A stretch of DNA of 64,000 nucleotides from a virus (lineage: Duplodnaviria > Caudoviricetes): IMG/VR virus record IMGVR_UViG_3300046167_000724; one strand, 5' to 3'. A program made the translations under genes and the position numbers. The notes beneath the pieces were generated by a model that made no database searches, was not told the origin of the DNA, and saw nothing but the letters and a program-made list of their open reading frames with translations. This document shows positions 10,083 to 56,771 of the stretch, one piece after another (positions within the stretch are counted from its first letter, which is position 1; every line of letters starts with the position of its first letter).

Positions 10083-10472
10083 ATGTTAAAAAAACCTGAA
10101 GTAATAAACGCAATTGAATGTGCTGGGTGTAATGTCCCAAAGGGTTGGGGTCATGAAATTGTTTTCGTAAATAATGAATTGTATTGTGGAAAGTTATTAG
10201 TTTTTAAGACAAATGCTAAATTTTCGATGCATTATCATTTAATCAAAGATGAAACATGGTATGTTGAAAGTGGTAAATTTTTATACCGTTGGATTGATAC
10301 TAGTAATGCTGAGGTTAATGAAGTAATTTTAAAAGTTGGTGATACTGTTAGACAACTTCCAGGTCAACCACATCAATTAGAGTGTTTGGAAGAGGGTACT
10401 ATTTTTGAAGTATCAACACAACATTTTGATCATGACTCTTATAGAGTTTGGAGGGGCGATTCGCAAAAATAA
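10083..10472 (+). CDS. cupin, sugar-phosphate isomerase-like
   Basis: KGWGHE...SMHYH..KDETW...H cupin motif. Confidence 0.75.
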   Translation: MLKKPEVINAIECAGCNVPKGWGHEIVFVNNELYCGKLLVFKTNAKFSMHYHLIKDETWYVESGKFLYRWIDTSNAEVNEVILKVGDTVRQLPGQPHQLECLEEGTIFEVSTQHFDHDSYRVWRGDSQK

Positions 10473-10477
10473 TTAAT

Positions 10478-10861
10478 ATGAAGATTTGGGTTAATGGTAC
10501 ATTTGACGTAATTCATAGAGGTCATATTGAATTACTTACAGCTGCGTCTGAATATGGTGAGCTTATAGTTGGTATTGATACCGATGAAAGAGTTAGGCAA
10601 TTAAAGGGTTCAAGTAGACCATTACATTCTTTGCAAGATAGGTCATATATTATTTCAAAGATTAAAGGTGTTTCAAAAGTTGTTAGCTTTGCGACCGACC
10701 AAGAATTAATAAATCATATAAAAGATATCCAACCCGATTACATGATGGTGGGTTCAGATTATATTGATAAAAATGTTATAGGCTCCGAGCATGCTAAAGA
10801 ATTGATATACTTTAAGAGAATTGAAGGGTATTCATCTACTAAAATAATGAATTATGAATAA
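10478..10861 (+). CDS. rfaE2: D-glycero-beta-D-manno-heptose 1-phosphate adenylyltransferase-like (HldC/RfaE domain II)
   Basis: GTFDVIHRGH HIGH motif, GIDTDERVRQLKG..RP, GSDY, YSST. ATG 10478 preferred over track start 10448. Confidence 0.8.
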   Translation: MKIWVNGTFDVIHRGHIELLTAASEYGELIVGIDTDERVRQLKGSSRPLHSLQDRSYIISKIKGVSKVVSFATDQELINHIKDIQPDYMMVGSDYIDKNVIGSEHAKELIYFKRIEGYSSTKIMNYE

Positions 10862-11606
10862 GGTTATAGTTATTGGAGAATATTGTACTGATAAATTTAT
10901 TTATGGTAAAATAGATAGGTTGAGCCCTGAAGCACCCGTACCGGTTTTATTACCTATTGAAACAACTGAAAACCCAGGTATGGCCGGTAATGTTGCTAGA
11001 AACTTAGAGGCTATTTCAGAATATTCAATAGAACATTTGCATCAAAATGAAGCTATTGTAAAAACAAGATTTGTAGAAAAGAAAACAAATCATATGTTTT
11101 TAAGAGTAGATGAGGGTGAGTCTAAGGCATGCACAAAAATTAATTTAGAACAATTAAATTCAAAGATTAAAAAAGCAAATGCGGTAGTTATTAGCGATTA
11201 CGATAAAGGGTTTTTAGATGTTGATGATATTATTAATATTTCAAAGATTTCTAGTTTTTCAATATTAGATAGTAAAAAGAAATTAAACTCTGATTCAATA
11301 CATCATTTAGATTTTATAAAGTTAAATGAATATGAAGCTAAATTAAACAAAGAACTAATAGCACTGTTTCCAGAAAAATTTATTATTACATTAGGTTCTA
11401 GTGGTGTTTTATATAATGGTGTAATGTATCCTAGTCCAAACCCACAAGAAACAATAGATGTTTCTGGTGCAGGCGACACATTTGTTGCTGGGTTTACTAT
11501 AAAATATTTAGAAACAAATGATGTAGATTTATCTATAAATTATGCAAATAAAATAGCGTCTCAAGTAGTAAGTATGCGAGGCGTAAATATACCAAATATA
11601 AAATAA
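10854..11606 (+). CDS. rfaE1: heptose-7-phosphate kinase-like PfkB protein (HldA/RfaE domain I)
   Basis: RLSPEAPVPV, GMAGNVA.NL, SDYDKG and DVSGAGDTF motifs. Confidence 0.85.
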   Translation: MNKVIVIGEYCTDKFIYGKIDRLSPEAPVPVLLPIETTENPGMAGNVARNLEAISEYSIEHLHQNEAIVKTRFVEKKTNHMFLRVDEGESKACTKINLEQLNSKIKKANAVVISDYDKGFLDVDDIINISKISSFSILDSKKKLNSDSIHHLDFIKLNEYEAKLNKELIALFPEKFIITLGSSGVLYNGVMYPSPNPQETIDVSGAGDTFVAGFTIKYLETNDVDLSINYANKIASQVVSMRGVNIPNIK

Positions 11607-11914
11607 TGTTACCATTCATTTCAATTATAGTAGCGGTTTTAGCAATGATTGCTATGGCGTACACAATTACATCAGACGAGAAATTATACAGGTTCACGTC
11701 AGTGCCTTACAATAAAGACAAACATGCAGTCTTTGAAGTACGTAGTAAAACATATGAGCATGCAAAAGAAGCCGCCATTGAAATGATGGCTATTTATCAA
11801 AGTAAAGTTGGACAACAACTTAGATGGGAATTGATTGAAGAGATTGACCCTAAAACAAAAGAAGTAATGGTAATCATGTATAAATTACCAGAATTAGAAA
11901 AACAAGAAGCTTAA
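11606..11914 (+). CDS. hypothetical protein with N-terminal TM helix
   Basis: 102 aa, hydrophobic N-terminus. Confidence 0.6.
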   Translation: MLPFISIIVAVLAMIAMAYTITSDEKLYRFTSVPYNKDKHAVFEVRSKTYEHAKEAAIEMMAIYQSKVGQQLRWELIEEIDPKTKEVMVIMYKLPELEKQEA

Positions 11915-11919
11915 TCAAG

Positions 11920-12396
11920 ATGCCAGGAAAAAGTATAGACGACAAAACAGTTTGGACAGTTACCACTACAAACGACCCATTTGGAAACCGTTGGGAATCA
12001 CACCCGAATTCAGCAGATTCACAAGTAAAAGATGAATTGGCGCCACAATACGGGACTCCACAAAACATTAGACCGTGGGGTGAATATCGTATCTTGCACA
12101 ATGATGAAAATTGTAAAGTTAAAAAGATTATAGTAAACCCAGGTGGTAAACTATCTTACCAATACCATCATAAACGTAATGAGGTTTGGACAATCATTGA
12201 AGGTACTGGTCAATTTACATTAGATGGTGTTCATACAATTTGTTCAGCAGGTGATACATTAATTATCCCAAGATTTGCGAAGCATATGATTGAAAATCTA
12301 AGCTCGGTACCCTTGACGTTTATTGAGGTACAGCGTGGAACTTATTTTGGTGAAGATGATATTGTTAGGATTGACGATATCTACGGTAGAAGTTAA
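11920..12396 (+). CDS. mannose-6-phosphate isomerase type II C-terminal cupin
   Basis: RPWG.Y, LSYQYHHKRNEVW, EVQRG.YFGEDDIVR..D.YGR. Confidence 0.85.
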   Translation: MPGKSIDDKTVWTVTTTNDPFGNRWESHPNSADSQVKDELAPQYGTPQNIRPWGEYRILHNDENCKVKKIIVNPGGKLSYQYHHKRNEVWTIIEGTGQFTLDGVHTICSAGDTLIIPRFAKHMIENLSSVPLTFIEVQRGTYFGEDDIVRIDDIYGRS

Positions 12397-12400
12397 ATAG

Positions 12401-13152
12401 TTGAATGATATGAAAATAGATAAAGTTTATATCATTACCATTGAACATAGCGAAGAACATTATAATTCTTTAATAGAAAGGCTAGATCAATTAAAATTAC
12501 CAGACGGTATACCTTTTCAAATATGGTCGGGTGTTGAAGGTCGGGAATTATTTAAGACTGAAGAAGGTCGTAAAGATTATGGAATCAAGTTTTATGATAA
12601 GTGGAATATAGGTGGTAATTGGTGGGGTCGTGATGTGACAACCGGAGAGGCCGGTGGCATTTGCTCACACGTTGAAGTCTGGGAAGATGCATATGAAAAG
12701 GGCTATCAAAATGTTTTAATTATTGAAGACGATTTTGAACCAGGCCGGTGTAATTGATTGGAATTGTTTTGATGAGTTACATAATTATGATTATGACCTT
12801 ATATTTTTATCAAGGCTTTTGAATAAGCACCATAAAAATGTATACGATTCTAATGTTGGACTAGACCATTTTGTAAAACCTGGATATTCTTACAATACAC
12901 ACATATACATTATGAGCTACGACGGTATTAAAAAGCTTAAAGAAACCTAACCTTGATATTCTTAGAAATAACATTATAGTTTCAGATGAGTTTTTACCAG
13001 CAACGTACGCTTGGCACCCTAGACAAGATTTAAGAGCGTTGTTTAATCAAAACATGAATGCACTCGCACTTAACTGGGACCCAATCGGCCAATTTCGGTC
13101 AGAAGATAATGGTAATTCAAGCACGAGCCCATTAAAAGGTGTAGATTATTAA
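12401..13152 (+). CDS. GT25-family glycosyltransferase, split by two probable +1 indel errors (~12743, ~12946)
   Basis: GEAGGICSH..VW..A....VLIIEDD, continuing into LFLSR...YNTH.YI.S..G.KKL and SDEF...H.R after frame corrections. Confidence 0.75.
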
Positions 13153-13194: not shown

Positions 13195-13782
13195 ATGCAA
13201 GTAAATAGTATTTGCGTCGATAATTTTTATAATGATGTCGACGAAGTAAGAAAGATGGCACTAAGCATGGAGTTTGGTGTTAGAGGTAATTACCCCGGTC
13301 AAAGAACAGTTCCAGTAAAAAATGAAAGCGTTAAGAATCTAATTAATAATATTATTAGACCATATGCTGGTGAAATTACAATGTGGGAATCTGAATACAC
13401 TGGGTCATTTCAATATACAACACAGAGAGACCGTTCTTGGGTACATGCTGACCAAACAACCACATGGGCCGGTGTACTATATCTCACACCTGACGCACCC
13501 TTAACCGGTGGTACAGGTTTGTTTAGACATAAAGAAACAGGTCTTGAAATGGCAGCTAGAACACCAACCGGTGAATATGACGACGCAGTTATGTCTGAAA
13601 TCTATAAAGATTCACAAGATATGACAAAATGGGAAATGACAGACTTTGTAGGTAATAAGTACAATAGACTTATTTTGTATAGAGGTGATAATTTCCACAC
13701 ATCACTTGATTATTTTGGTAGAGATATTAATGACGGCCGTTTGTTCAAACGTTTTTCTTTGATACGCAATACTAAGATATGA
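13195..13782 (+). CDS. 2OG-Fe(II) oxygenase-like protein (DUF6445-like)
   Basis: VDNFY...YPG.RT, WVHAD, AGVLYLTP, NRLILYRG..FH.S. A probable 1-nt deletion near 13746 alters the C-terminus (expected FQTFFF). Confidence 0.75.
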   Translation: MQVNSICVDNFYNDVDEVRKMALSMEFGVRGNYPGQRTVPVKNESVKNLINNIIRPYAGEITMWESEYTGSFQYTTQRDRSWVHADQTTTWAGVLYLTPDAPLTGGTGLFRHKETGLEMAARTPTGEYDDAVMSEIYKDSQDMTKWEMTDFVGNKYNRLILYRGDNFHTSLDYFGRDINDGRLFKRFSLIRNTKI

Positions 13783-15078
13783 TTAAGGTAGGTCTTCCAT
13801 CAGCTTTAGTATATGGTCACTCAAAATTTGAGGGCAAATACCATATCAATAGTAATTTATATCATGAAGAAAATCTGCAAGAAAGAGTCGCGGTCTATAT
13901 AAAGTCAGACTCTAAAAAATTTACAGAACATTTTGCAACAGGTAAACCCAGATGTTATTATAACAATTGGCGGTACTCGTGCGTCTTGGGAATGGATTGC
14001 TAGAGAGAGTGGTCAAGTTTTTATATCTAGCAAATGGATTCATTACACTGAAGAGTATAGTGATTTGATAATGGCAAATGATATTGCACGTCAAGGAACT
14101 TATAATGCATGCGAAACAATTGCACTTCCAGACTTCTCAGTTTTTACAGGCGCTTATAAAACAGAGGCTGGTAGAATCAAACGGTCATACAAAAGTTTAG
14201 TCGCACAAACTCACCAAAATTGGGAATGGGTTGTTGTAGATGACTCACCGGAATCGCATACTGAAACCTGGGAAATCCTTAAAGCTTTAGCTAAAACGGA
14301 TTACCGTGTAAAACCACATAGAATCTTTCCAGTTTCAGGTGGTAATATTGGTGAAGTTAAGAATCGGGCAGCTTCACTTTCAAATGGTAAATGGTTGATT
14401 GAAATGGACCATGACGATGCACTGCTCCCAACTTTAATGGAAGAATGTATTAAAGGTGCTGAAATGTATCCAGATGCTGGTTTTATTTACACAAATCCAG
14501 CTGAGCCGTACGAAGATGGTGAAATGCGACAATATACTAAAACAATCGGTGATAGAGATGTATGGTATGCAAACCCTTTAAATACATTTGTATGGGGATA
14601 CGGTGGCCATAGATATACAGAACACGAGGGTATGCAATATGTTGAGCATATTTATCCAGGTATAAACCCAAAGACAATTCGCTTTAATATTGGTATGCCT
14701 AACCACGCAAGAATATGGAGAAGAGATGTATATGAAGCAATTGGTAAACACAATAAATTTATTTCAGTTGCAGACGATTATGAGTTAATTGTAAGAACAT
14801 TCTTGAATACAAGAATGTTGCATATAAACAAAATGCTTTATTTACAGTATAATAATAGAAATTCAACCGTTGATAACAATGCAACGGATATTAATCGCAA
14901 ATCAAGACTCATTAAAGAGTTTTATGATAAACAGATTAAAGAACGCTTTGTAGAATTAGGCGTTGAAGATTGGGAATGGAATGAATCAGACGGTCGTTCA
15001 AACCTATTTCAAAATGATATGGGCCGTCTTAAGTATTTTGAAAAAGAATCAAAGGTAAATTATACAATTTATGAATAA
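13779..15078 (+). CDS. GT2-family glycosyltransferase (probable indel ~13931)
   Basis: WEWVVVDDS, EMDHDD, ADDYEL motifs. Confidence 0.85.
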
Positions 15079-16741
15079 CATAGTTATGGGTCTATCGACA
15101 GGCCATAATAGAGGTGCAGCCATAACAGTAGATGGTGAAATGAAAGTGGCTATTTCTAACGAAAGAATCACACGTGTTAAAACAGATCATTCTGATGAGA
15201 TGCCAATTGAATCTATGAACTATTGTCTAGAAGCATTGGGCATTACATATAATGATGTTGATTTATTTGTATACAATATTACAGAGCCTGAAAACAAAGT
15301 TACTGCTAGTTTTGAAAAGGTTACTGGTCAATCAATAGATAAGCTTAAATTTATACCACACCATATTGCACATGCATATTCAACTTTTGCAGCATCTGGC
15401 TTTGAAGAAGCCGCTGTTGTTGTGGTTGATGCAATGGGTTCTGTCTATAATGATGTAACCCCCATTAAAAAATGGTACCAACTTGATGAATCAGAACTAG
15501 AAGAGGGCCAGCAATGGGCTGAAGGCTATTCAATTTATCAGTTTAAGAAAAATGATATTAACCCACACCCAAAATATAAAAAATGGGTGAGATTTCCATT
15601 TCAAGAGCCATATGAAGGTTCTGTAGGTTACTTTTATGGAATGGGTGCAAAACAACTTGTGTATAATCCTAAGAGTAATACATGGCCAGCAGGTAAGCTA
15701 ATGGGTCTTGCTAGTTATGCGGATCCTAAGTTTGTAGAAGATTTTCCTGATTTTTCTATTAGAACAGAAAATGATTTGCAAGTTCCAGCAACTCCTTTAT
15801 TAGATGATGAAACTAACTGGGAGTCTGATTTTGCGGCTAAGGCTAATGTTGCCGGTCTTTATCAAAGAGAGCAAGAATTAAATTCAATGCACTTAGTAGA
15901 AATGGCTAAAAGGTTAACAGACTCTGATAACATATGTGTTGCTGGTGGTTCATTCTTAAATTGTAATACTAACGAGATGATTATTCGTTCAGGTCTTTTT
16001 GAGAATCAATACTTTATGCCACCTGCAGATGATTCAGGTATTCCACATGGTTGTGCATATGCTGGAGCTGCTTACTTAATGGATGAAATTAGAACAGGTG
16101 ATTGGATGTCAGCATATACTGGTAAAATTTACTCAGATGACGCCATTGAAAAAGCTATTGAATCTTTTGATTTAGTTGACTTCAATAAGATTACTAAGGA
16201 AGAAAAGTATAATTTAGCGGCTCGAATGTTAAATGATAATAAAGTTATTGGCTGGATGCAGAACGGTTCAGAAACAGGCCCTAGAGCTCTTGGTAACCGT
16301 TCAATGCTTGCAAGTCCAAAATCACCATGGATGGTAAACTATATTAACTCAGAGATTAAAAGAAGAGAATGGTACCGCCCGTTCGCACCTTCGGTCTTAT
16401 ATGATAAGCAAGCTGAAATCTTTGAACTTGATACATACTCACCATATATGTTAGTAACAACAATGGTTAAAGAAGAATGGCGAGATAAGATTCCATCAGT
16501 CGTACACCATGACGGTACTTCAAGGTATCAATCGGTGACTAAAGAAAATAATGAAGAGTACTATAATTTAATTAGCGCATTTTACGAAAAGTCAGAAGTG
16601 CCAGTTGTACTTAACACTTCCTTTAACGGTCCTGATGAACCTGTAGTAGAAACACCCGAAGACGCAATAAATTCAATGCTAAAGCATGATTTATACGTTT
16701 TATTTATAAATGATTATATAATTTTTAGAAATGACAAATAA
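15071..16741 (+). CDS. O-carbamoyltransferase (NodU/CmcH family)
   Basis: HH.AHAYS, DAMG, GKLMGLASY, AGGSFLNC, GPRALGNRS, RPFAP, LNTSFN motifs. Confidence 0.92.
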   Translation: MNNIVMGLSTGHNRGAAITVDGEMKVAISNERITRVKTDHSDEMPIESMNYCLEALGITYNDVDLFVYNITEPENKVTASFEKVTGQSIDKLKFIPHHIAHAYSTFAASGFEEAAVVVVDAMGSVYNDVTPIKKWYQLDESELEEGQQWAEGYSIYQFKKNDINPHPKYKKWVRFPFQEPYEGSVGYFYGMGAKQLVYNPKSNTWPAGKLMGLASYADPKFVEDFPDFSIRTENDLQVPATPLLDDETNWESDFAAKANVAGLYQREQELNSMHLVEMAKRLTDSDNICVAGGSFLNCNTNEMIIRSGLFENQYFMPPADDSGIPHGCAYAGAAYLMDEIRTGDWMSAYTGKIYSDDAIEKAIESFDLVDFNKITKEEKYNLAARMLNDNKVIGWMQNGSETGPRALGNRSMLASPKSPWMVNYINSEIKRREWYRPFAPSVLYDKQAEIFELDTYSPYMLVTTMVKEEWRDKIPSVVHHDGTSRYQSVTKENNEEYYNLISAFYEKSEVPVVLNTSFNGPDEPVVETPEDAINSMLKHDLYVLFINDYIIFRNDK

Positions 16742-18017
16742 TATGAAGAAACCAAGTAACATTAAAATCGTATTGAATGCGATGGTTGGTAATGAAGAAA
16801 ACACCATTACTAGAATGCTTGAATCAACGGCGGACTATATTGATTACTATGTAATTCAATGCAACGGTAAAGTTGATAACACTAGAAAAATCATCGATGA
16901 TTTTTATGCTGAAAGAAATATTCCAGGTTTCACTTATGAAATTGATTGGCAGTTCCCAGGTATTAACAGAGACCACACATTACAGACTTGTTTAAAGGCA
17001 GACCACGGTTGTGATTGGATTTTACGTATGGATGCTGATGAGCAATTATTAGTTGATGACACATTTGACTGGACAGTATTTGAAGACCTTTCAATTGATT
17101 CATTTAATGTACCTGCAGATGCTGGTGATTCAATCTACTTTAGAACGTGGATGTGGAACGCAGATAGACCATGGTACTTTACACATGATAAACGCCATGA
17201 AACTATTCACCTTCCAGTAATTGATGAAGGTTTCCAGAGAGTTAGTTTAGACCGTGGATTCAGACACTACATTACAAATGATGGTGAGACATGGGATGCT
17301 CCGATGAAATTCTTAACAGATGCATTAGAACTTGAAAAAGATAAAGTACCGAGCAATTTAGTACTTGAAGACAATTACCACTTATTCTATATTGGTAAAT
17401 CTTATTCAGATTCTTATGGAAATCCAAATGAACTTCCGTTTGGTAAAGAACATGCAGATGAGTATGCACGTCGCGCAATTTTCTATTTTAACATGTATAT
17501 TAATAAACTTCATAATTATAAAGAAACTCAAAGACCGGCAACTGAAGATGATATGGGATATTACGCAATGTATCTAATCGCACGTGCTTATGAGTTTATT
17601 GGTGATAATGAAATGGCATTAGAATGTTACTCAAGGTCTTTAGAATTTAGCCCACGTAGAAACGAGGCTATTTACTCAAGAGCTGAATTGTTTGAAAGAA
17701 TGGGCCAGTATAAAGATATGTTAGCTGAAACTACAATTCTTGTTCATGAAAATAGACCACATCCATTCCCAGAGGTTTCTTTCTTAGTACATAATTCTGC
17801 ATATTATAACACAAACCCATTACCATTATGGTTACACCTTAAAGCGTTAAAAGCTAATGGTATGGATATGACTGCAACTATTACTAGGTTAGAATCATTA
17901 CATTCTGATTTACCAGAATACATTACATCAGTTTATTCTAATATAGAAGATGTGACGGTTTTAGAAGATATTGAAACTGCAAATAAATTATCAGGTGTCT
18001 TTGGAATCACAAGATAA
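16731..18017 (+). CDS. GT2-like glycosyltransferase with TPR C-terminus
   Basis: MVGNEE..I.R.LES, WILRMDADE, HET; TPR-like helices (PRRNEA). Confidence 0.8.
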   Translation: MTNNMKKPSNIKIVLNAMVGNEENTITRMLESTADYIDYYVIQCNGKVDNTRKIIDDFYAERNIPGFTYEIDWQFPGINRDHTLQTCLKADHGCDWILRMDADEQLLVDDTFDWTVFEDLSIDSFNVPADAGDSIYFRTWMWNADRPWYFTHDKRHETIHLPVIDEGFQRVSLDRGFRHYITNDGETWDAPMKFLTDALELEKDKVPSNLVLEDNYHLFYIGKSYSDSYGNPNELPFGKEHADEYARRAIFYFNMYINKLHNYKETQRPATEDDMGYYAMYLIARAYEFIGDNEMALECYSRSLEFSPRRNEAIYSRAELFERMGQYKDMLAETTILVHENRPHPFPEVSFLVHNSAYYNTNPLPLWLHLKALKANGMDMTATITRLESLHSDLPEYITSVYSNIEDVTVLEDIETANKLSGVFGITR

Positions 18018-19107
18018 ATTATATGACTTTGTTATCGTGGGCGCAGGCTTTTATGGCGCCATATGTGCCCACGAATTAACAAAAGCAGGGAAATCTGTAC
18101 TGGTCCTTGAAAAAAGAAACCATATCGGAGGGAACTGTTATACACACAACATTGATGGTGTTCATGTCCATGAATATGGCCCTCATATATTCCACACCAA
18201 TGACCAAAAGATTTGGGATTGGATAAATCAGTTCGCGGAGTTTAACAACTACAAGAACACTCCAGTTGCAAATTACAAAGGTGAAATTTACTCACTTCCA
18301 TTTTCAATGTGGACCTTTAGTCAAATGTGGGGTGTTAAAACTCCAGAGGAGGCTAAGGCAAAGATTGAATCTCAAAGATACGAAGGTAAGGTCTCGAATC
18401 TTGAGGAACAAGCACTTTCGCTAGTTGGTAAGGATATTTATGAGAAGCTAATTAAGGGATATACCACCAAACAATGGAGAAAAGACCCGAAGGAGCTACC
18501 GGCTTCGATTATTAAGAGACTTCCAGTTCGATTTACTTATGACAATAATTATTTCAACGACAAGTATCAAGGTATTCCAGTTGGTGGCTACACTCAAATC
18601 TTTGAACGGTTATTAGATGGTGTAAACATCAAGTTTAACATTGACTACTTTGAAAACAGAGCACAGTGGGACACAATCGCTAAAAATGTAATCTATACTG
18701 GACCTATAGATAAGTTTTTCGATTACGAACATGGTGACCTGGAGTACAAATCTATTCGATGGGAAAACGAATTGATGGACACTGATAACCATCAAGGTTG
18801 TGCTGTTATGAATTATACAGATGTTGAAACACAACATACAAGAGTTATTGAACACAAGTACTTTGACGATCAAAATCAAAAAACTACTTATGTTAGTAAA
18901 GAGTTTCCGCAAGAATACAAAAGAGGTGTTGAACCGTTTTATCCTGTGAATGATGAGACTAATACTGAAATTTATAGAAAGTATAAAGCGAAAGCTGATG
19001 CTATACCAAATATACATTTCGGTGGAAGACTAGCAACTTACAAATATTACGATATGCATCAAGTAATTGCTTCGGCATTGCACGATCTTGAAACAAAATT
19101 AAAGTAA
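18001..19107 (+). CDS. glf: UDP-galactopyranose mutase
   Basis: VGAGFYGA, HIGGNCY, H.YGPHIFHT, YF.D.YQGIP..GY, GRLATYKYYDMHQ. Start TTG 18001 or 17971. Confidence 0.95.
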   Translation: MESQDKLYDFVIVGAGFYGAICAHELTKAGKSVLVLEKRNHIGGNCYTHNIDGVHVHEYGPHIFHTNDQKIWDWINQFAEFNNYKNTPVANYKGEIYSLPFSMWTFSQMWGVKTPEEAKAKIESQRYEGKVSNLEEQALSLVGKDIYEKLIKGYTTKQWRKDPKELPASIIKRLPVRFTYDNNYFNDKYQGIPVGGYTQIFERLLDGVNIKFNIDYFENRAQWDTIAKNVIYTGPIDKFFDYEHGDLEYKSIRWENELMDTDNHQGCAVMNYTDVETQHTRVIEHKYFDDQNQKTTYVSKEFPQEYKRGVEPFYPVNDETNTEIYRKYKAKADAIPNIHFGGRLATYKYYDMHQVIASALHDLETKLK

Positions 19108-19109
19108 TT

Positions 19110-19820: not shown

Positions 19821-19830
19821 CACATATAAT
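19801..19830 (+). promoter_or_regulatory. class II promoter
   Basis: TTGAAA-N18-TATAAT before ATG 19835. Confidence 0.6.
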
Positions 19831-19834
19831 ACAT

Positions 19835-20299: not shown

Positions 20300-20309
20300 C
20301 ACTGTTCAA

Positions 20310-20339
20310 TTGAAACATTAATTAAACAAAAAGTATAAC
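20310..20339 (+). promoter_or_regulatory. class II promoter of the Hc1-like gene
   Basis: TTGAAA-N18-TATAAC ending 1 nt before ATG 20341. Confidence 0.55.
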
Positions 20340-20340
20340 A

Positions 20341-20517: not shown

Positions 20518-20528
20518 TCCTTTAAAGC

Positions 20529-48726: not shown

Positions 48727-48728
48727 AT

Positions 48729-51700
48729 ATGTTTGATGATATCTCCGGCATTAATGATGGACCCAACGGTTCAAAACTGCCATTACTTAGAAAAATACTA
48801 AAGCGTCCTTTATCTCATGAAGAGATGGACTACAACCTAAGATTAATTCACAACATCTTGGACGATTACCCTATTTTAGGTGGTGGCGTTGAAGGTGAAG
48901 TTATTGCTTCTGATTTAGGTAAATCACTAGTACTTAAAGAATACCCGGCAAGTTCGGGTGATTGGGTATGGGTATTTGAAGATATTTCAGGTGGTAACGG
49001 TACATCAGGTGTTAATGGATCTGCTGGTTCTTCAGGTACTGATGGTACTTCGGGTTCTTCTGGTACAGATGGTACTTCAGGAACTTCAGGTTTGACACCA
49101 ACTGCAGGTGGTTCACCTTATACATATAGATATGAAATAAATAATCCAGTGGGTTCGCCTCAGGTAACTCCAACTGCGGCTACAATTTCATTTAATACAC
49201 AATCTGGTGAATTATACATACCATTCATTGATCAAAACGGTATCGACCATTCTAATAGAATATGGATGATATTAAATCAAGACGCATTTGATCTTGATAT
49301 TATTAGTTTTACGTCAGCTAATGTGTATGACCATTATGAATTTGGTGCTACTAATTACTACACAGCTAATTACGGTGGTTTTGATTTTTATGTTGTTGAA
49401 GTATTACAATTTAATGGTAGTGTTACTTCAAATCCAGGCGGTAATGCTTCTGGCTTCGCAAATCATGCGGGTACAATGCCACAGGGTATTGTAAATCCAG
49501 AATGTATTGTAACTTTTGATAAGTGGATTGATCCAGCACAGGGTGTTGCGGGTTCAGATGGTACTTCAGGTACAGACGGTTCTTCAGGTTCAAGTGGTTC
49601 ATCAGGTTCTTCAGGTACAGATGGTACTTCAGGTACAGACGGTTCATCGGGTTCTTCAGGGACAGATGGTACTTCAGGTACAGATGGTGCTACAGGTTCA
49701 TCGGGTTCAAGTGGTACAGATGGTACTTCAGGAACTGATGGTTCTTCAGGCTCATCAGGGACAGATGGTTCTTCAGGAACAGATGGTACTTCAGGTACAG
49801 ACGGTATAGACGGTTCTTCAGGTTCAAGTGGTACAGATGGTACTTCAGGGACAGATGGTATAGACGGTTCATCGGGTTCTTCAGGGACAGATGGTACTTC
49901 AGGTACAGATGGTACTTCAGGTACAGATGGTACTTCAGGTACAGATGGTGCTACAGGTTCATCAGGTTCTTCAGGTACAGATGGTACTTCAGGTACAGAT
50001 GGTGCTACAGGTTCATCAGGTTCTTCAGGTACAGATGGTACTTCAGGTACAGATGGTGCTACAGGTTCATCAGGTTCTTCAGGTACAGATGGTGCTACAG
50101 GTTCATCAGGTTCTTCAGGTACAGATGGTACTTCAGGTACAGATGGTGCTACAGGTTCATCAGGTTCTTCAGGTACAGATGGTACTTCAGGAACAGATGG
50201 TATAGACGGTTCTTCAGGTTCTTCGGGGACAGATGGTACTTCAGGGACAGATGGAACTAATGGTTCTTCAGGTACTTCTGGAACAAGTGGTGTAGACGGT
50301 GCAGATGGTGTAGGTTCTGGTAGAATTTACTACTTTAACGATTCAATTATAGAGGTAGCAAGTACTAAACAACTTTCAATGGATCCTACGTCAGGCGCTG
50401 AAAGAACAGTTAGTGTGTCAGCTATTCAAAATACAGATACAAAAATAGAAGAGTACATTTCAACTCCGTTTGATTTCACAGTCATACCCGGTGGTGTACA
50501 AAGATTCTTCTTATGGATGACTAAAGAGAATCAAAACGACGATATAGAAGTTTATGTGGTTCTTAAAGTAACTGATAACTCAGGTAACGTACTTGCAACA
50601 GCAGGTACGTCACAGGCTGTAAATATCGGTTGGAATAATAATAATACAACTCCAGTATTTACGGAAGTAGATATTACTCTTGCGTCGGCTCCAGTTGCTA
50701 TTGGCCAAAGAATGCTAGTAGAAGTATGGACTAAAAATAACGTAAATCAAGATCGTGATGTTACTTTCTATACAGAAGGTGCTGCACATTATTCATATGT
50801 AATAACGACACTTTCATTAATTTCAGGGACTTCAGGTACAAGTGGTACATCAGGGACTTCAGGGACTTCAGGGACTTCAGGTACAGATGGCGCTACAGGT
50901 TCATCAGGTTCTTCAGGGACAGATGGTACTTCAGGTACAGATGGTGCTACAGGTTCATCGGGTTCAAGTGGTACAGATGGTACTTCAGGAACTGATGGTT
51001 CTTCGGGGACAGATGGTACTTCGGGGACAGATGGTACTTCAGGTACAGATGGTATAGACGGTTCATCAGGTTCTTCAGGGACAGATGGTACTTCAGGTAC
51101 AGATGGTATAGACGGTTCTTCAGGTTCAAGTGGTACAGATGGTACTTCAGGTACAGATGGTACTTCAGGAACTGATGGTTCTTCAGGAACTGATGGTTCT
51201 TCAGGAACTGATGGAACTAATGGTACTTCGGGCACAGATGGTTCATCAGGCTCATCAGGCACAGATGGAACTAATGGTTCTTCAGGAACAGATGGTTCAT
51301 CAGGTTCTTCAGGTACTGATGGTACATCAGGTACTGATGGTGCTACAGGTTCATCGGGTTCAAGTGGTACAGATGGTACTTCAGGAACTGATGGTTCTTC
51401 AGGCTCATCAGGGACAGATGGTTCTTCAGGAACAGATGGTATAGACGGTTCTTCAGGAACAGATGGAACTAATGGTTCTTCAGGGACAGATGGTACTTCA
51501 GGTACAGATGGTATAGACGGTTCTTCAGGTTCAAGTGGTACAGATGGTACTTCAGGTACTGATGGTTCATCAGGTACTGATGGCTCGAGCGGCACGGATG
51601 GTACTTCAGGTACTGATGGTATAGATGGAACTTCAGGTACAGATGGTACTTCAGGTACATCGGGTACTTCAGGTACAGATGGTACTTCAGGTTCAAGCGG

Positions 51701-54700
51701 TACAGACGGTTCTTCAGGTACAGATGGTGCTACAGGTACTTCAGGTACAGATGGTACTTCAGGTACAGATGGAACTAATGGTTCTTCAGGGACAGATGGA
51801 ACTAATGGTTCTTCAGGAACAGATGGTATAGATGGTTCTTCAGGAACGGACGGAACTAATGGTTCTTCAGGAACGGACGGAACTAATGGTTCTTCAGGAA
51901 CAGATGGTTCTTCAGGAACGGACGGTACTTCAGGAACGGACGGTACTTCAGGTACAGATGGTTCAAGTGGTACGGATGGTACTTCAGGTACAGATGGTGT
52001 AGATGGTACTTCAGGTACTGATGGTACATCAGGAACTTCAGGCTCATCAGGAACAGATGGTTCTTCGGGTTCTTCAGGAACTAATGGTTCATCAGGAACA
52101 GATGGTTCTTCGGGTACTTCAGGTACAGATGGCTCAAGTGGTACGGATGGTACTTCAGGTACAGATGGTATAGATGGTACTTCAGGTACTGATGGTACAT
52201 CGGGCACTTCAGGTTCTTCAGGTACAAGCGGTACGGATGGTACTTCAGGTACAGATGGTACTTCAGGTTCAAGTGGTACTGATGGTACTTCAGGTACTTC
52301 AGGTACATCAGGTACAAACGGGACTTCTGGTACAGATGGTACATCGGGTACAAGTGGTACATCAGGTACATCAGGTACAGATGGTTCAAGCGGTACTGAT
52401 GGTACTTCAGGAACTTCAGGAACAGATGGAACTTCAGGCACGGACGGTACTTCAGGAACTTCAGGTTCAAGTGGTACATCAGGTTCAAGTGGTACATCAG
52501 GTACGTCAGGTACGGATGGAACTTCAGGAACGTCAGGTTCAAGTGGTACGGACGGTTCAAGTGGTACAGATGGCACAAGTGGTACAGATGGTACTTCAGG
52601 TACAGATGGCACTTCAGGTACATCAGGTTCTTCGGGAACAGATGGTACAAGTGGTACGTCAGGTTCTTCAGGAACAGATGGTACAAGTGGTACTGATGGT
52701 ACGAGTGGAACGGACGGTTCAAGTGGTACAAGCGGTACAGATGGTACTTCAGGTACAGATGGTACTTCAGGTACGTCAGGTACTGATGGTACTTCAGGTA
52801 CTTCAGGAACATCAGGTTCTTCAGGAACAGATGGTACGTCAGGAACAGATGGCTCTTCAGGCACATCAGGTACGGATGGAACTTCAGGAACAGATGGCAC
52901 ATCGGGTACATCAGGTACTGATGGTACATCGGGTACATCGGGTACATCGGGTACATCAGGTACATCAGGTTCTTCGGGAACAGATGGTACGTCGGGTACA
53001 GACGGTACATCAGGTACTTCAGGTACAGATGGTACAAGTGGAACATCAGGTTCTTCGGGAACAGATGGTTCTTCAGGTACGTCAGGAACTTCGGGTACGT
53101 CAGGATCTTCGGGTACGTCAGGTTCTTCTGGAACAGATGGGACTTCAGGTACTGATGGTACAAGTGGTACTTCAGGTTCTTCAGGCACAAGTGGTTCAAG
53201 CGGTACTGATGGTACTTCAGGTACTTCAGGGTCTTCAGGTACATCAGGTTCTTCTGGAACAGATGGGACTTCAGGTACAGATGGATCTTCGGGAACTTCA
53301 GGTACAGATGGTTCTTCAGGAACAGATGGTACATCAGGTACATCAGGTTCTTCAGGAACTTCAGGCTCATCAGGAACATCAGGCACATCAGGTTCTTCTG
53401 GAACAGATGGTACTTCTGGAACAGACGGTACTTCAGGAACTTCAGGTTCAAGTGGTACAGACGGAACAAGTGGTACATCAGGTTCTTCAGGGACTTCGGG
53501 AACATCAGGTTCTTCAGGAACTTCAGGTTCATCAGGTACAAGTGGCTCAAGCGGTACGGATGGTACTTCAGGAACTTCGGGTTCAAGTGGTACAGACGGA
53601 ACAAGTGGTACATCAGGTTCTTCAGGGACTTCGGGAACATCAGGTTCTTCAGGAACTTCAGGTTCTTCTGGAACGGATGGTACTTCAGGAACAGACGGCA
53701 CATCAGGAACAGACGGTACATCAGGAACAAGTGGTACTTCAGGTACTTCAGGTTCTTCAGGTACTTCAGGTACTGATGGTACTTCAGGAACTTCAGGTTC
53801 ATCGGGTACAAGTGGTTCAAGTGGTACGGATGGTACTTCAGGAACAGACGGTACGTCTGGTACAGATGGTACTTCAGGAACTTCAGGTTCTTCGGGAACA
53901 TCAGGAACATCAGGTTCATCAGGCACATCAGGAACATCAGGTTCATCAGGTACAGATGGTACAAGTGGTACAGACGGTACTTCAGGTACAAGTGGTTCTT
54001 CAGGAACTTCAGGTACTGACGGTACTTCGGGTACAAGTGGAACATCAGGAACATCAGGGACATCAGGAACATCAGGTTCATCAGGTACAGATGGTACTTC
54101 AGGTACAGATGGTACTTCAGGTACAAGTGGTTCATCAGGTACAAGTGGTTCATCGGGTACATCAGGTACATCAGGTACTAGCGGTTCATCGGGAACTTCA
54201 GGTTCATCAGGTACTTCAGGTACAGATGGTACTTCAGGTACAGATGGTACATCAGGAACTTCAGGCTCATCAGGAACAAGTGGTTCATCAGGAACTTCAG
54301 GTTCAAGTGGTACAAGTGGTTCATCGGGAACTTCAGGTTCATCAGGTACTTCAGGTACAGATGGTACTTCAGGTACAGATGGTACATCAGGAACTTCAGG
54401 TTCATCAGGAACAAGTGGTTCATCGGGTACATCAGGAACAAGTGGTACTTCAGGTTCTTCTGGTACTTCAGGTTCATCAGGAACAGATGGTACTTCAGGA
54501 ACGGATGGTACTTCAGGTACATCAGGTACTTCTGGTTCTTCAGGGACTAGCGGTTCTTCAGGAACATCAGGCACATCAGGCACTAGCGGTTCTTCTGGTA
54601 CTTCAGGTTCATCAGGAACAGATGGTACTTCAGGAACAGATGGTACATCAGGTACTTCTGGTTCTTCAGGGACTAGCGGTTCTTCAGGAACATCAGGCAC

Positions 54701-56771
54701 ATCAGGCACTAGCGGTTCATCGGGAACTTCAGGTTCATCAGGAACAGATGGTACTTCAGGAACGGATGGTACATCGGGTACTTCTGGCTCATCAGGCACA
54801 TCAGGTTCTTCTGGTACAAGTGGTTCTTCAGGAACTTCAGGTTCAAGTGGTACAAGTGGTACAAGTGGCTCATCGGGAACAGACGGAACTTCAGGAACAG
54901 ATGGAACTTCAGGTACAAGTGGCTCATCAGGAACATCAGGCTCATCAGGAACTTCAGGTTCAAGTGGTACGAGCGGTACATCAGGTTCATCAGGTACTTC
55001 AGGTACAGACGGTACATCAGGTACAAGTGGATCAAGCGGTACATCAGGTACTTCGGGTACTTCAGGTACTTCTGGGTCTTCAGGTACATCAGGTTCAAGT
55101 GGTACGAGTGGCACATCAGGTTCTTCAGGTACTGATGGTACTTCAGGCACAGACGGAACTTCAGGTACAGACGGAACTTCTGGAACATCAGGTTCATCTG
55201 GAACATCAGGTTCATCAGGGACTTCAGGTTCATCGGGAACTTCAGGAACATCAGGTTCAAGTGGTACAGATGGTACTTCAGGAACAAGTGGGTCATCAGG
55301 AACAAGTGGGTCATCAGGAACTTCAGGTACTTCAGGTACATCAGGTACAAGTGGCTCGAGCGGGACAAGTGGAACTTCAGGTACAAGTGGCACGGACGGT
55401 ACATCAGGTACTGATGGTACTTCAGGTACTGATGGTACATCAGGAACTTCAGGTTCTTCAGGAACTTCGGGTTCTTCGGGGACTTCAGGTTCATCAGGAA
55501 CTTCAGGTACTTCTGGTTCTTCAGGTACAGATGGTACTTCAGGAACTTCTGGTTCATCAGGAACTTCAGGTTCATCAGGAACTTCAGGAACTTCAGGCTC
55601 ATCAGGAACTTCAGGTTCTTCGGGAACTTCAGGTTCATCAGGTACAAGTGGTTCAAGTGGTACGGATGGTACATCAGGAACAGATGGTACTTCTGGAACG
55701 GACGGTACTTCAGGAACTTCAGGAACTTCAGGAACTTCAGGAACTTCAGGTACGGACGGCACTTCAGGGACGGATGGTTCATCAGGAACTTCTGGTACGT
55801 CTGGTACTTCTGGTACGGACGGCACATCAGGAACAAATGGCACATCAGGTACAAGTGGCACATCAGGTACAAGTGGTACATCAGGTACAAGTGGATCAAG
55901 CGGTACATCGGGTACTTCAGGTACAGATGGAACTTCTGGTACGTCTGGTACTTCTGGTACAAATGGTACTTCAGGAACGAGTGGTACATCGGGAACAAGC
56001 GGTACAAGTGGATCAAGCGGTACATCGGGTACTTCAGGTACATCAGGTGACCCGGGTGACCCAGGGACGTCAGGTACATCAGGAACATCAGGACTACCGG
56101 GTGATCCAGGTGACCCAGGAACATCAGGTACATCAGGTACTTCAGGTACAGAAGGAGATAATTGGACATCTTATGGATCAAATCCTGCCGGTCCTGGCGC
56201 AAATGTGGGTGACCAACATTTAAACACAACAACTGGTGAAGTATTCCAATGGAATGGAAGCGCGTGGGTATCAACTGGTAATATTAAAGGAGCTGATGGT
56301 AATAACGGTACATCAGGAACTTCAGGTACTTCAGGTACAGATGGTGTTTCATATACTGAAGTTTCTATTAATTCAATACCTGCTTCACTAAGTATAACTA
56401 ACTTTATTAATAATGGTAACTCATGGCGTGACGCGTTTGTAGTAGTACCTACAGAATATGATGGATGGTATATACATGGTTACGTTGTAGCATACGGTGA
56501 TGCATGGCCTTCAGCAAATAATACATTTACTGTTGAACTTAGAAATCAAGTTGCACCAACTGCTCAGGTTGTTGTAGCATCTTTTAATTATTCACACCCT
56601 TCAGCAACTAGGGCGTGGGGTGATTATATTACGCCAGTTCAAGTTACGGCTGGATATACTATAAACATTGCGTTTAATTCAAACGGTGGGATTCCTGCTG
56701 GTGGTAATGCTTCGGGTTATACTGCAACTTTATTATTACTTCCAACTTCTAATAACCCATTCACACCATAA
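48729..56771 (+). CDS. giant Gly-X-Y (GTS/GTD/GSS) repeat protein, putative virion fibre
   Basis: N-terminal LR...KRPLSHEEMDYN fibre-like motif; globular domains between strict Gly-every-third repeats; GDQHLNTTTGEVFQWNGSAWVSTGNIKG motif near the C-terminus. Confidence 0.85.
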   Translation: MFDDISGINDGPNGSKLPLLRKILKRPLSHEEMDYNLRLIHNILDDYPILGGGVEGEVIASDLGKSLVLKEYPASSGDWVWVFEDISGGNGTSGVNGSAGSSGTDGTSGSSGTDGTSGTSGLTPTAGGSPYTYRYEINNPVGSPQVTPTAATISFNTQSGELYIPFIDQNGIDHSNRIWMILNQDAFDLDIISFTSANVYDHYEFGATNYYTANYGGFDFYVVEVLQFNGSVTSNPGGNASGFANHAGTMPQGIVNPECIVTFDKWIDPAQGVAGSDGTSGTDGSSGSSGSSGSSGTDGTSGTDGSSGSSGTDGTSGTDGATGSSGSSGTDGTSGTDGSSGSSGTDGSSGTDGTSGTDGIDGSSGSSGTDGTSGTDGIDGSSGSSGTDGTSGTDGTSGTDGTSGTDGATGSSGSSGTDGTSGTDGATGSSGSSGTDGTSGTDGATGSSGSSGTDGATGSSGSSGTDGTSGTDGATGSSGSSGTDGTSGTDGIDGSSGSSGTDGTSGTDGTNGSSGTSGTSGVDGADGVGSGRIYYFNDSIIEVASTKQLSMDPTSGAERTVSVSAIQNTDTKIEEYISTPFDFTVIPGGVQRFFLWMTKENQNDDIEVYVVLKVTDNSGNVLATAGTSQAVNIGWNNNNTTPVFTEVDITLASAPVAIGQRMLVEVWTKNNVNQDRDVTFYTEGAAHYSYVITTLSLISGTSGTSGTSGTSGTSGTSGTDGATGSSGSSGTDGTSGTDGATGSSGSSGTDGTSGTDGSSGTDGTSGTDGTSGTDGIDGSSGSSGTDGTSGTDGIDGSSGSSGTDGTSGTDGTSGTDGSSGTDGSSGTDGTNGTSGTDGSSGSSGTDGTNGSSGTDGSSGSSGTDGTSGTDGATGSSGSSGTDGTSGTDGSSGSSGTDGSSGTDGIDGSSGTDGTNGSSGTDGTSGTDGIDGSSGSSGTDGTSGTDGSSGTDGSSGTDGTSGTDGIDGTSGTDGTSGTSGTSGTDGTSGSSGTDGSSGTDGATGTSGTDGTSGTDGTNGSSGTDGTNGSSGTDGIDGSSGTDGTNGSSGTDGTNGSSGTDGSSGTDGTSGTDGTSGTDGSSGTDGTSGTDGVDGTSGTDGTSGTSGSSGTDGSSGSSGTNGSSGTDGSSGTSGTDGSSGTDGTSGTDGIDGTSGTDGTSGTSGSSGTSGTDGTSGTDGTSGSSGTDGTSGTSGTSGTNGTSGTDGTSGTSGTSGTSGTDGSSGTDGTSGTSGTDGTSGTDGTSGTSGSSGTSGSSGTSGTSGTDGTSGTSGSSGTDGSSGTDGTSGTDGTSGTDGTSGTSGSSGTDGTSGTSGSSGTDGTSGTDGTSGTDGSSGTSGTDGTSGTDGTSGTSGTDGTSGTSGTSGSSGTDGTSGTDGSSGTSGTDGTSGTDGTSGTSGTDGTSGTSGTSGTSGTSGSSGTDGTSGTDGTSGTSGTDGTSGTSGSSGTDGSSGTSGTSGTSGSSGTSGSSGTDGTSGTDGTSGTSGSSGTSGSSGTDGTSGTSGSSGTSGSSGTDGTSGTDGSSGTSGTDGSSGTDGTSGTSGSSGTSGSSGTSGTSGSSGTDGTSGTDGTSGTSGSSGTDGTSGTSGSSGTSGTSGSSGTSGSSGTSGSSGTDGTSGTSGSSGTDGTSGTSGSSGTSGTSGSSGTSGSSGTDGTSGTDGTSGTDGTSGTSGTSGTSGSSGTSGTDGTSGTSGSSGTSGSSGTDGTSGTDGTSGTDGTSGTSGSSGTSGTSGSSGTSGTSGSSGTDGTSGTDGTSGTSGSSGTSGTDGTSGTSGTSGTSGTSGTSGSSGTDGTSGTDGTSGTSGSSGTSGSSGTSGTSGTSGSSGTSGSSGTSGTDGTSGTDGTSGTSGSSGTSGSSGTSGSSGTSGSSGTSGSSGTSGTDGTSGTDGTSGTSGSSGTSGSSGTSGTSGTSGSSGTSGSSGTDGTSGTDGTSGTSGTSGSSGTSGSSGTSGTSGTSGSSGTSGSSGTDGTSGTDGTSGTSGSSGTSGSSGTSGTSGTSGSSGTSGSSGTDGTSGTDGTSGTSGSSGTSGSSGTSGSSGTSGSSGTSGTSGSSGTDGTSGTDGTSGTSGSSGTSGSSGTSGSSGTSGTSGSSGTSGTDGTSGTSGSSGTSGTSGTSGTSGSSGTSGSSGTSGTSGSSGTDGTSGTDGTSGTDGTSGTSGSSGTSGSSGTSGSSGTSGTSGSSGTDGTSGTSGSSGTSGSSGTSGTSGTSGTSGSSGTSGTSGTSGTDGTSGTDGTSGTDGTSGTSGSSGTSGSSGTSGSSGTSGTSGSSGTDGTSGTSGSSGTSGSSGTSGTSGSSGTSGSSGTSGSSGTSGSSGTDGTSGTDGTSGTDGTSGTSGTSGTSGTSGTDGTSGTDGSSGTSGTSGTSGTDGTSGTNGTSGTSGTSGTSGTSGTSGSSGTSGTSGTDGTSGTSGTSGTNGTSGTSGTSGTSGTSGSSGTSGTSGTSGDPGDPGTSGTSGTSGLPGDPGDPGTSGTSGTSGTEGDNWTSYGSNPAGPGANVGDQHLNTTTGEVFQWNGSAWVSTGNIKGADGNNGTSGTSGTSGTDGVSYTEVSINSIPASLSITNFINNGNSWRDAFVVVPTEYDGWYIHGYVVAYGDAWPSANNTFTVELRNQVAPTAQVVVASFNYSHPSATRAWGDYITPVQVTAGYTINIAFNSNGGIPAGGNASGYTATLLLLPTSNNPFTP
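49542..50322 (+). repeat. coding Gly-X-Y repeat block (~260 aa)
   Basis: GTD/GTS/GSS/GAT triplets, including tandem near-exact ~54-bp units. Confidence 0.9.
50826..56156 (+). repeat. coding Gly-X-Y repeat block (~1780 aa, ~590 triplets)
   Basis: Continuous 9-nt-period repeats (ggt act tca / ggt aca gat / ggt tct tca) with synonymous variation. Confidence 0.95.

Follow-up and report, generated by a model that had tools for sequence, protein, structure and literature searches.

Does a phage sugar-coat its own giant fibre, and if so, with which enzyme and which sugar? The question is raised by a 64,000-nucleotide stretch of DNA (hereafter the window) from the IMG/VR virus record IMGVR_UViG_3300046167_000724 (Duplodnaviria; Caudoviricetes), which encodes a glycosyltransferase (GT) with a domain related to the protein heptosyltransferases TibC and Aah, two proteins resembling enzymes of ADP-heptose synthesis, and a fibre built largely of Gly-X-Y triplets. 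A preliminary description had proposed that these genes, spread over positions 10083–56771, form one system in which the phage heptosylates its fibre. We found that TibC-like genes and Ser/Thr-rich Gly-X-Y fibres are recurrently paired in phage genomes. The comparison across hundreds of phages suggests that the transferase sugar-coats such fibres.

The transferase is split in the window over two open reading frames (ORFs) on the plus strand, 27584–30106 and 30204–31670, the second of which (488 aa) had been described as a separate Aah-like transferase gene. Both ORFs belong to one four-module glycosyltransferase gene (27584–31670, +), of which the Aah-like domain is the last module. The break is a +1 frameshift in CAGGGAGGAGG, caused by one extra base at about 30091–30095; the ORF 27584–30106 stops nine bases past the frame change. 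Four out of four independent seawater metagenome assemblies from four studies, more than 99% identical over 1.2 kb, lack one base at 30091 or 30095. At least ten studies have yielded seawater metagenomes in which this 1.2-kb stretch recurs. The orthologue in the viral locus L001 (59–70% identity) is a single ORF of 1285 aa that runs uninterrupted through ...GKNQGEAVEW..., and in P0122 (76% identical) the GT4 and TibC modules are continuous. The natural gene therefore encodes about 1361 aa. Residues 4–56 of the 488-aa ORF match Glycos_transf_1, i.e., the middle of a GT4 domain. An independent Aah-like gene at 30204–31670 was rejected on the strength of the continuous L001 ORF and the four assemblies without the extra base. 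The same four assemblies, together with the fact that both halves are still open and conserved, make it very improbable that the frameshift is genuine in this genome and the transferase here a pseudogene, a view for which the presence of the extra base in the window sequence speaks.

The first module (27584–28513, +) is GT9-like and resembles lipopolysaccharide (LPS) heptosyltransferases (Glyco_transf_9, E 1e-7; weak matches to RfaQ, RfaC, and RfaF), with a Cys cluster of its own. We considered it as a recent duplicate of the TibC-like module and rejected this origin, as BLASTP of module 1 against module 4 detected no similarity. Module 2 (28514–29260, +) is a lead towards a GT-A-like region (GT8 or nucleotide-diphospho-sugar transferase-like), its only match being an ESM-Atlas feature match of 0.91–0.93 to GT8/Nucleotid_trans clusters. 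Module 3 (29270–30550, +) is a GT4-type GT-B domain, recognized by Glycos_transf_1 and by alignment with L001, and contains the frameshift; its homologues (PF00534/PF13692) are located N-terminal to the TibC-like part. Module 4 (30573–31637, +) is the TibC/Aah-like module. In public data, the TibC-like domain lies nearly always within such multi-domain proteins, which have 700–1500 aa.

A search of the 488-aa ORF against the Aah/TibC family had been proposed as a check, and the ORF passes it: with TIGR04414 (hepto_Aah_TibC) it scores 204.5 bits, a small margin over the cut-off of 200. It also matches TibC (4RAP) with an E-value of 4.5e-42, spanning TibC residues 99–379. Residues were compared against the functional map of TibC (PMC4358343), and conservation was taken from a family alignment of 41 sequences. 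In TibC, D110 is the catalytic base, T226, K230, and W305 bind the sugar and phosphate, and Cys339/342/358/370 form the iron finger, all of them functionally required (PMC4358343). The equivalent residues of the phage protein, namely D205 (30816–30818) for the catalytic base, T328, K332, and W396 for sugar/phosphate binding, and C432, C435, C449, and C461 for the four Cys, are invariant in the 41 sequences. The four Cys (31497–31586), which had been noticed earlier as a motif at 31491–31590, align with the TibC iron finger, and such a finger is predicted here. The position of TibC P300, which bears on stereoselectivity, is occupied by Ser, as in AAH, an enzyme that takes both ADP-D,D- and ADP-L,D-heptose (PMC4358343). 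An AlphaFold2 (AF2) model based on the alignment (pLDDT 90.7) places strands at residues 125–186 ahead of the GT-B domain, corresponding to the beta-barrel at about 30573–30764. Foldseek aligned about 390 columns of this model to whole TibC chains (4RAP/4RB4), beta-barrel included, with a TM-score of 0.81–0.85, whereas WaaC reached only about 0.5. Judged from alignment and predicted structure, the membership of module 4 in the BAHT family is solid at the catalytic level.

The proposed acceptor is encoded by one ORF of 2680 aa (48729–56771, +), defined by its translation and composition. It contains 696 Gly-X-Y triplets (GTS 311, GSS 169, GTD 166) in four runs (aa 91–123, 272–526, 700–2478, and 2521–2541), the longest of which extends uninterrupted over 1779 aa or 593 consecutive triplets. 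The X position holds Thr or Ser in 661 triplets, and the Y position Ser or Asp in 662. The whole fibre has 1252 Ser and Thr residues and 37 Pro, with Pro at five of the 1392 X/Y positions. The giant protein of G-T-S/G-S-S/G-T-D triplets with more than a thousand hydroxyls that had been reported is thus present, and its triplets are collagen-like Gly-X-Y repeats. The fibre is collagen-like, Ser/Thr-rich, and nearly Pro-free. It departs from classic collagen in that Thr, Ser, and Asp dominate the X and Y positions instead of Pro or hydroxyproline, and its match to the Pfam Collagen model is weak (E 9e-4). Five non-collagen domains (aa 1–90, 124–271, 527–699, 2479–2520, and 2542–2680) accompany the runs. 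PHROGs and Pfam give no family for these domains or for the neighbouring genes on either side of the fibre gene, a search for homologues of the C-terminus (2479–2680) found nothing, and a single-sequence AF2 model of that C-terminus (pLDDT 42) was unusable.

The array is not a product of assembly. Its DNA repeats are diverged, with 60–70% matches, and it is therefore no assembly stutter; moreover, the first 123 aa share 64% identity with the fibre at the syntenic position in L001, and this conservation confirms the reading frame and argues against an assembly artefact. Long ORFs in other frames, up to 1690 aa (50789–55861 (-), 52081–54171 (-), and 52174–56223 (+)), were rejected as genes and represent shadows of the Gly-X-Y array. 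The L001 lineage has several collagen-like fibres: G001, the record behind L001, encodes at least three more collagen-like ORFs (911, 2248, and 1101 codons) at 75526–96077, about 55–75 kb upstream of the transferase.

The link between both genes comes from their co-occurrence, which had been suggested as a check for TibC-like domains and GTS-repeat ORFs and turned out strongly positive. Full-length relatives of the transferase are encoded on 260 IMG/VR viral contigs. Loci were counted among the 80 best viral loci, taken with ±10 kb each, which form 37 clusters at 80% identity. A Gly-X-Y ORF lies within ±10 kb in 51 of these 80 loci. After dereplication, 26 of the 37 clusters have a Gly-X-Y giant within that distance which is Ser/Thr-rich (0.6–0.98 of X and Y positions) and essentially Pro-free, and the clusters lacking one are mostly truncated loci. 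On dereplicated whole phage records (42–373 kb) the nearest Ser/Thr-rich Gly-X-Y repeat is found within 10 kb of the transferase in 23 out of 24 cases, usually convergent to it and 0.4–7 kb distant, and such a repeat is present in each of the nine records with a completeness of 90% or more. If the records are treated as independent, their null probabilities multiply to about 1e-21. Bacterial BAHT loci served as control. In an equal amount of DNA, a Ser/Thr-rich Gly-X-Y ORF was found in 5/80 bacterial loci versus 47/80 viral loci, and several of the five positive bacterial loci resemble phage-type multi-domain versions in metagenome-assembled genomes. Among the 80 viral loci (±10 kb), only L050 has fibre non-collagen domains matching those of the fibre in the window; the syntenic L001 fibre, which shares its N-terminus, lies beyond the ±10 kb flank. 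The recurring feature is therefore the repeat and not a particular fibre gene.

The pair also occurs in a cultured virus, the Microcystis phage Mel-JY01 (L086, PP395634.1), which carries a TibC-like gene and a collagen-like ORF. Its 1226-aa coding sequence at 4750–8430 is annotated as ‘methyltransferase FkbM’ and has the TibC-like domain at its end. From the start of the record, an open frame of 1016 codons (2–3049, +) is rich in collagen-like GTS/GSS/GTR triplets; the GenBank annotation misses it and gives two hypothetical coding sequences on the minus strand (1–651 and 739–2298). A similar case is L087, where a Gly-X-Y frame of 2678 codons with 740 triplets (14075–22109, -) is split by the metagenome gene caller into wrong-frame genes; one of the products has 1273 aa and is made of Q/V/D/L repeats. 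In public protein sets, the annotation of giant collagen-like fibres is probably incomplete.

Which sugar would be transferred is a question for the heptose-activation block (10083–12757), whose genes are all located on the plus strand. The RfaE2/RfaE1-like enzymes that had been reported at 10478–11606 are indeed there, with the two HldE domains as best models and the expected motifs. The HldC-like nucleotidyltransferase (10448–10861, likely start ATG at 10478) has a cytidylyltransferase fold and HRGH and SST motifs. Among NCBIfam models it scores best with rfaE_dom_II (91 bits; equivalog cut-off 181.5; runner-up glycerol-3-P cytidylyltransferase, 57), and its top matches in the PDB are other cytidylyltransferases. 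The HldA-like heptose-7-phosphate kinase (10854–11606) is a short PfkB protein of 250 aa with the motifs SPEAPVPV and DVSGAGD (GAGD). It matches best to rfaE_dom_I (123.7 bits; cut-off 345; runner-up ribokinase, 43), and its sole PDB match is HldA 4E84 (E 7e-11).

Two cupins accompany this pair. CupinA (10083–10472) is a 129-aa metal-binding cupin (Cupin_2, E 9e-6; weak Lyx_isomer, PMI, and WbuC matches) with visible HxH...E and PGxxH motifs. It may serve the heptose module as a sugar-phosphate isomerase or epimerase. In L006, L016, L018, L047, L055, and L087, a homologue of it follows the TibC-like gene and precedes HldC and HldA. The other one is a type II phosphomannose-isomerase cupin (11920–12396; MannoseP_isomer C-terminal domain, E 3e-31; GMP_PMI model positions 358–467). 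GmhA and phosphomannose isomerase share their chemistry, since GmhA turns a ketose phosphate into the manno-configured aldose phosphate; a cupin replacing GmhA is therefore plausible, and purely from this analogy we infer that the protein is a candidate stand-in for GmhA (sedoheptulose-7-P isomerase). The block further contains a 102-aa protein with a hydrophobic N-terminus and no family match (11606–11914), and it ends with a GT25-like N-terminal fragment of 118 aa (12401–12757; Glyco_transf_25, E 8e-10). In several phage lineages the gene order is TibC-like, cupin, HldC, and HldA, followed by the convergent fibre gene. Where the HldA/HldC pair is present, it is often located directly between transferase and fibre, with the CupinA homologue ahead.

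Taken together, the 1361-aa protein may act as an assembly-line glycosyltransferase whose C-terminal TibC/Aah-type module most likely adds the first sugar. This would probably be D-glycero-D-manno-heptose, donated by ADP-heptose, and it would be placed on the Ser/Thr hydroxyls of the phage’s own proline-free (G-T-S/G-S-S/G-T-D)n collagen-like fibre, in the host cytoplasm and before or during fibre trimerisation. The fused GT4-, GT-A-, and GT9-like modules would then extend the glycan, which could be tailored by the adjacent FkbM and class I methyltransferases and perhaps by the carbamoyltransferase, Galf, and hexosamine genes. The donor would be made by the phage HldA-like kinase and HldC-like adenylyltransferase, with one of the neighbouring cupins as sedoheptulose-7-P isomerase instead of GmhA, and with a phosphatase of the host, or one yet to be identified, in the place of GmhB. 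We give an even chance to this joint mechanism, in which the TibC-like module heptosylates the fibre and the fused modules extend the glycan. As to its parts, glycosylation of the fibre has good support from genomics, the fibre is the best-supported acceptor and rather probably the real one, and heptose as the sugar transferred is plausible to about the same degree. The proposal that the phage heptosylates its own fibre thus holds as regards the Aah/TibC-family enzyme and its strong pairing with fibres; it is weakened by the accessory nature of the heptose genes and by similar fibres that occur without the transferase.

The fibre as acceptor agrees with a habit of the family, as aah-aidA and tibC-tibA also have the enzyme gene beside the substrate gene. 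There is, however, evidence that weighs against this mechanism, concerning the acceptor, the enzyme, and the sugar. The acceptors known for BAHT enzymes consist of beta-helical autotransporter repeats instead of collagen-like triplets. The records behind the co-localisation statistic are not phylogenetically independent, and synteny by descent inflates it. Fibre and transferase are not adjacent, being 17 kb apart in the window and 14.6 kb in L001. In the L041 cluster, which has seven members, a Gly-X-Y ORF is missing within ±10 kb, and in its representative L041 the nearest repeat is 46 kb off. Similar fibres are also encoded without a TibC-like gene, by a complete 32.6-kb phage and by 59–61% complete records of 176–182 kb. 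The complete one, G037 (the record behind L206; 32,588 bp with direct terminal repeats, 100% complete), has a fibre of the G-T-D/G-T-S type, and such fibres can therefore exist lacking this transferase. In the reverse test the implication from fibre to transferase fails; this test is largely uninformative, because most fibre-selected contigs are 5–30% complete fragments that end inside the repeat.

These findings leave room for another acceptor (capsid, tail, or a host surface protein), with the four-module transferase lying near fibres only through a shared late, fast-evolving structural/accessory region. The 17 kb between enzyme and fibre in the window are filled with unrelated genes, the repeat of the L041 cluster is remote, and fibres are found without the enzyme; in addition, mycobacteriophages are said to glycosylate capsid and tail-tube proteins. 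We nevertheless consider another acceptor unlikely. The pairing spans TibC-like domains that are less than 80% identical to each other and about 35% identical to this one, as well as fibres with unrelated non-repeat domains, and the partner repeats are always Ser/Thr-rich. Furthermore, no autotransporter-like gene (AIDA-I/TibA-type) was seen as a partner among the window ORFs scanned.

As to the enzyme, module 4 departs from the BAHT family in architecture, in genomic partner, and probably in oligomeric state. The beta-hairpin thumb is 11 residues shorter, with alignment gaps of five and six residues relative to TibC, and the AF2 model has no hairpin at residues 357–372. In TibC the thumb builds the dodecamer, and its shortening makes a dodecameric ring doubtful for the phage protein. 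In addition, R286 of TibC, which contacts adenine N1 (PMC4358343) and bears on ADP specificity, aligns with Val; an Arg follows two residues later, and members of the phage family vary at this position.

The case for the sugar is burdened in several ways. Both the HldA-like and the HldC-like protein score far below the equivalog cut-offs. Neither GmhA (SIS fold) nor GmhB (HAD) was found in the window, of which not every small ORF was scanned, and the sole SIS protein found is a genuine GlmS; the preliminary description, which stated that neither is in the window, is borne out on this point, and the ADP-heptose pathway is incomplete. The only HAD protein found is a phosphatase of 150 aa (2903–3355, +) of the PNKP/HAD-IIIA type (HAD_PNKP, E 2e-30; 25 bits). 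GmhB is a member of the HAD-IIIA group as well, which makes this protein a weak candidate for the heptose-bisphosphate phosphatase that the pathway lacks; a role as nucleic-acid 3'-phosphatase is more likely. Across transferase-carrying records, HldA-like genes occur in 4/26 and HldC-like genes in 5/26, and HldA/HldC are missing from seven to eight of the nine complete TibC-carrying genomes. In L001, the closest relative, an HldA-like gene is missing and the cytidylyltransferase-like matches to HldC are weak (E 2.5e-13, 27% identity). The heptose pair is therefore an accessory module.

These gaps speak for the alternatives that the fibre accepts a sugar other than heptose, or that the HldA/HldC-like pair makes another nucleotide sugar for a different purpose: most TibC-carrying phages lack the pair, both enzymes stay under the cut-offs, the Arg by which TibC contacts adenine has not been retained, and GmhA and GmhB are missing. 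We rate this as rather improbable. For both enzymes the best models are the two HldE domains, the kinase has the HldA-type SPEAPVPV motif and HldA as its only PDB match, the pair lies directly between the TibC-like and fibre genes in several lineages, and the heptose-contacting Trp, Thr, and Lys are invariant. Phages without the pair could be provided with ADP-heptose by hosts that have heptose-containing LPS. An accessory pair would fit phages whose hosts make no ADP-heptose.

What we infer from the genes is which protein is the acceptor, which sugar it receives, what the cupins do, and any gain of the fibre in stability, solubility, or shielding. A bolder version would have dense O-heptosylation, extended and methylated, replace hydroxyproline in stabilising the Pro-free collagen triple helix, with a cupin isomerase in place of GmhA opening a new ADP-heptose route where hosts make none. 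Marine and freshwater phages would thereby possess a fibre resembling a glycocalyx, and its 1779-residue run, taken at about 0.29 nm per residue, would measure roughly half a micrometre. We regard this version as speculative and improbable.

Further glycan genes surround the transferase, and they bear on the possibility that the phage remodels the host envelope (LPS core, capsule, or S-layer), e.g., to block superinfection, independently of the virion. Glycan block B (13195–19820, all on the plus strand) was recognized by Pfam and NCBIfam matches and encodes a DUF6445 protein (13195–13782), a GT2 (13933–15078), a NodU-like O-carbamoyltransferase (15071–16741), a GT2 with TPR (16731–18017), a UDP-galactopyranose mutase (17971–19107), and a P4H-type 2OG-Fe(II) oxygenase (19110–19820; 2OG-FeII_Oxy_3, E 1e-19). 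The oxygenase stands in a glycan block; the fibre repeats are nearly without Pro or Lys. In L068, homologues of the GT2, GT2-TPR, and DUF6445 genes separate the TibC-like gene from the Gly-X-Y fibres.

Downstream of the transferase and on the same strand, an FkbM-family methyltransferase gene (31657–32424; Methyltransf_21, E 5e-17; TIGR01444, 83 bits) overlaps the transferase stop codon. In 35 of the 80 viral loci, the TibC-like ORF either includes an FkbM domain or has one next to it. In the window, the FkbM gene is followed by a class I methyltransferase (32429–33067; Methyltransf_24, E 2e-19), which is also found next to the transferase in L001 and L088, and by an NAD-dependent sugar epimerase (33077–33958) that is best described as GalE-like (galE 164.5 bits versus 112.8 for the HldD-like heptose_epim, both under the cut-off). 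The next genes encode GlmS, the glutamine-fructose-6-phosphate transaminase for hexosamine supply (34026–35888; NF001484, 787 bits, cut-off 381), and a DUF6165 protein (35938–36324; PF19662, E 4e-13). The DUF6165 domain is fused N-terminal to TibC-like domains in P0038 and P0039. Genes for GlmS, Glf, GT2, GT11- and GT25-like proteins, and a carbamoyltransferase are typical of surface-polysaccharide loci, and module 1 resembles LPS heptosyltransferases, both in line with a role at the host envelope. Such a role appears quite improbable, as the last module falls into the protein-modifying BAHT branch (TM-score 0.84 to TibC versus 0.5 to WaaC) and the pairing with fibres is specific to phages.

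The proposed phage system can be compared with several known ones. With TibC and Aah/AAH (BAHT; TIGR04414; 4RAP/4RB4; PMC4358343) it shares the fold with an N-terminal beta-barrel, the catalytic Asp, the Thr/Lys/Trp set, and the Cys4, as well as, in the proposal made here, the logic of Ser hyper-glycosylation of a long repetitive protein by an enzyme encoded near its substrate. TibC and Aah are stand-alone enzymes of about 400 aa, whereas the phage module is fused behind three glycosyltransferase modules, its thumb is shorter by the 11 residues mentioned, and the adenine-contacting Arg is not conserved. It is also phage-borne, and its proposed acceptor is a collagen-like Gly-X-Y protein instead of a beta-helical autotransporter, of which no partner turned up among the ORFs scanned. 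Bacillus anthracis BclA and Clostridioides difficile BclA3/SgtA (PMC8968730, PMC7157674) likewise combine a Thr-rich Gly-X-Y protein with a dedicated O-glycosylating transferase, and the BclA-type glycan is thought to aid hydration or stability of a triple helix without hydroxyproline (PMC8968730, PMC7157674). They differ in that transferases and sugars are unrelated (rhamnose/anthrose, GlcNAc), the repeats contain Pro (GPT), and the proteins are located on the spore surface. The staphylococcal SdgA/SdgB (PDB 7VFL and others) are GT-B enzymes that also modify every Ser of a long simple repeat, with a weak fold match (TM-score about 0.2), UDP-GlcNAc as donor, and bacterial adhesins as acceptors. 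The ADP-heptose pathway (GmhA-HldA/HldE-GmhB-HldC-HldD) is resembled in that the HldA-like kinase and the HldC-like nucleotidyltransferase are separate genes, as in Burkholderia and Neisseria; unlike the standard pathway, two cupins stand in the place of GmhA/GmhB and the kinase falls about 65 residues short of the usual length. Among phages, mycobacteriophage glycosyltransferases reportedly O-glycosylate Ser/Thr-rich parts of the phages’ own structural proteins (work of Freeman et al. in 2023). They are of the GT2/GT4 type and not BAHT, the acceptors are capsid and tail-tube C-termini, and neither a nucleotide-heptose module nor a collagen-like fibre is involved.

To our knowledge, the only role known for TibC/Aah enzymes is the maturation of autotransporter adhesins in pathogens, and phage virion glycosylation has so far been shown for mycobacteriophages. 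The literature that we searched does not describe the pairing of a TibC-like transferase and a collagen-like fibre in phages. If the fibre is indeed the acceptor, the TibC/Aah family would have a large and mostly phage-borne branch, with 548 clusters at 50% identity (E <1e-30), collagen-like fibres would form a new substrate class of the family, and virion glycosylation would reach abundant aquatic phages. Glycosylation could then account for the solubility or folding of proline-free Gly-Thr-Ser “collagens”. Glyco-engineering would also gain a self-contained module for the heptosylation of a simple repeat. With the same gene pair present in the cultured phage Mel-JY01, the proposal is testable now.

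In the window as a whole, coding is on the plus strand and the DNA is AT-rich, with a GC content of 0.31–0.39 outside the fibre gene and 0.44–0.48 across it. The rise over 48001–56000, from about 0.33–0.38, is due to the GGT/ACT/TCA-type codons of the G-T-S repeat and not to a foreign origin. Megablast of 27500–34000 against GenBank phages gave zero matches; there is no close GenBank phage relative. Positions 10083–56771 do not form the single contiguous system that had been described, as three glycan-gene blocks and the fibre are separated by unrelated genes. Upstream of this region there is an additional glycan gene for a GT11 (fucosyltransferase-like) protein (205–1143, +), as well as a tRNA-Gln(UUG) (1216–1288, +). 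Scattered among the glycan genes are those for an M42 aminopeptidase (8984–10066), a 4HBT thioesterase (21334–21717), a PD-(D/E)XK nuclease (24983–25552), and a flavodoxin-like protein (7098–7688), four interspersed genes with no evident link to glycosylation.

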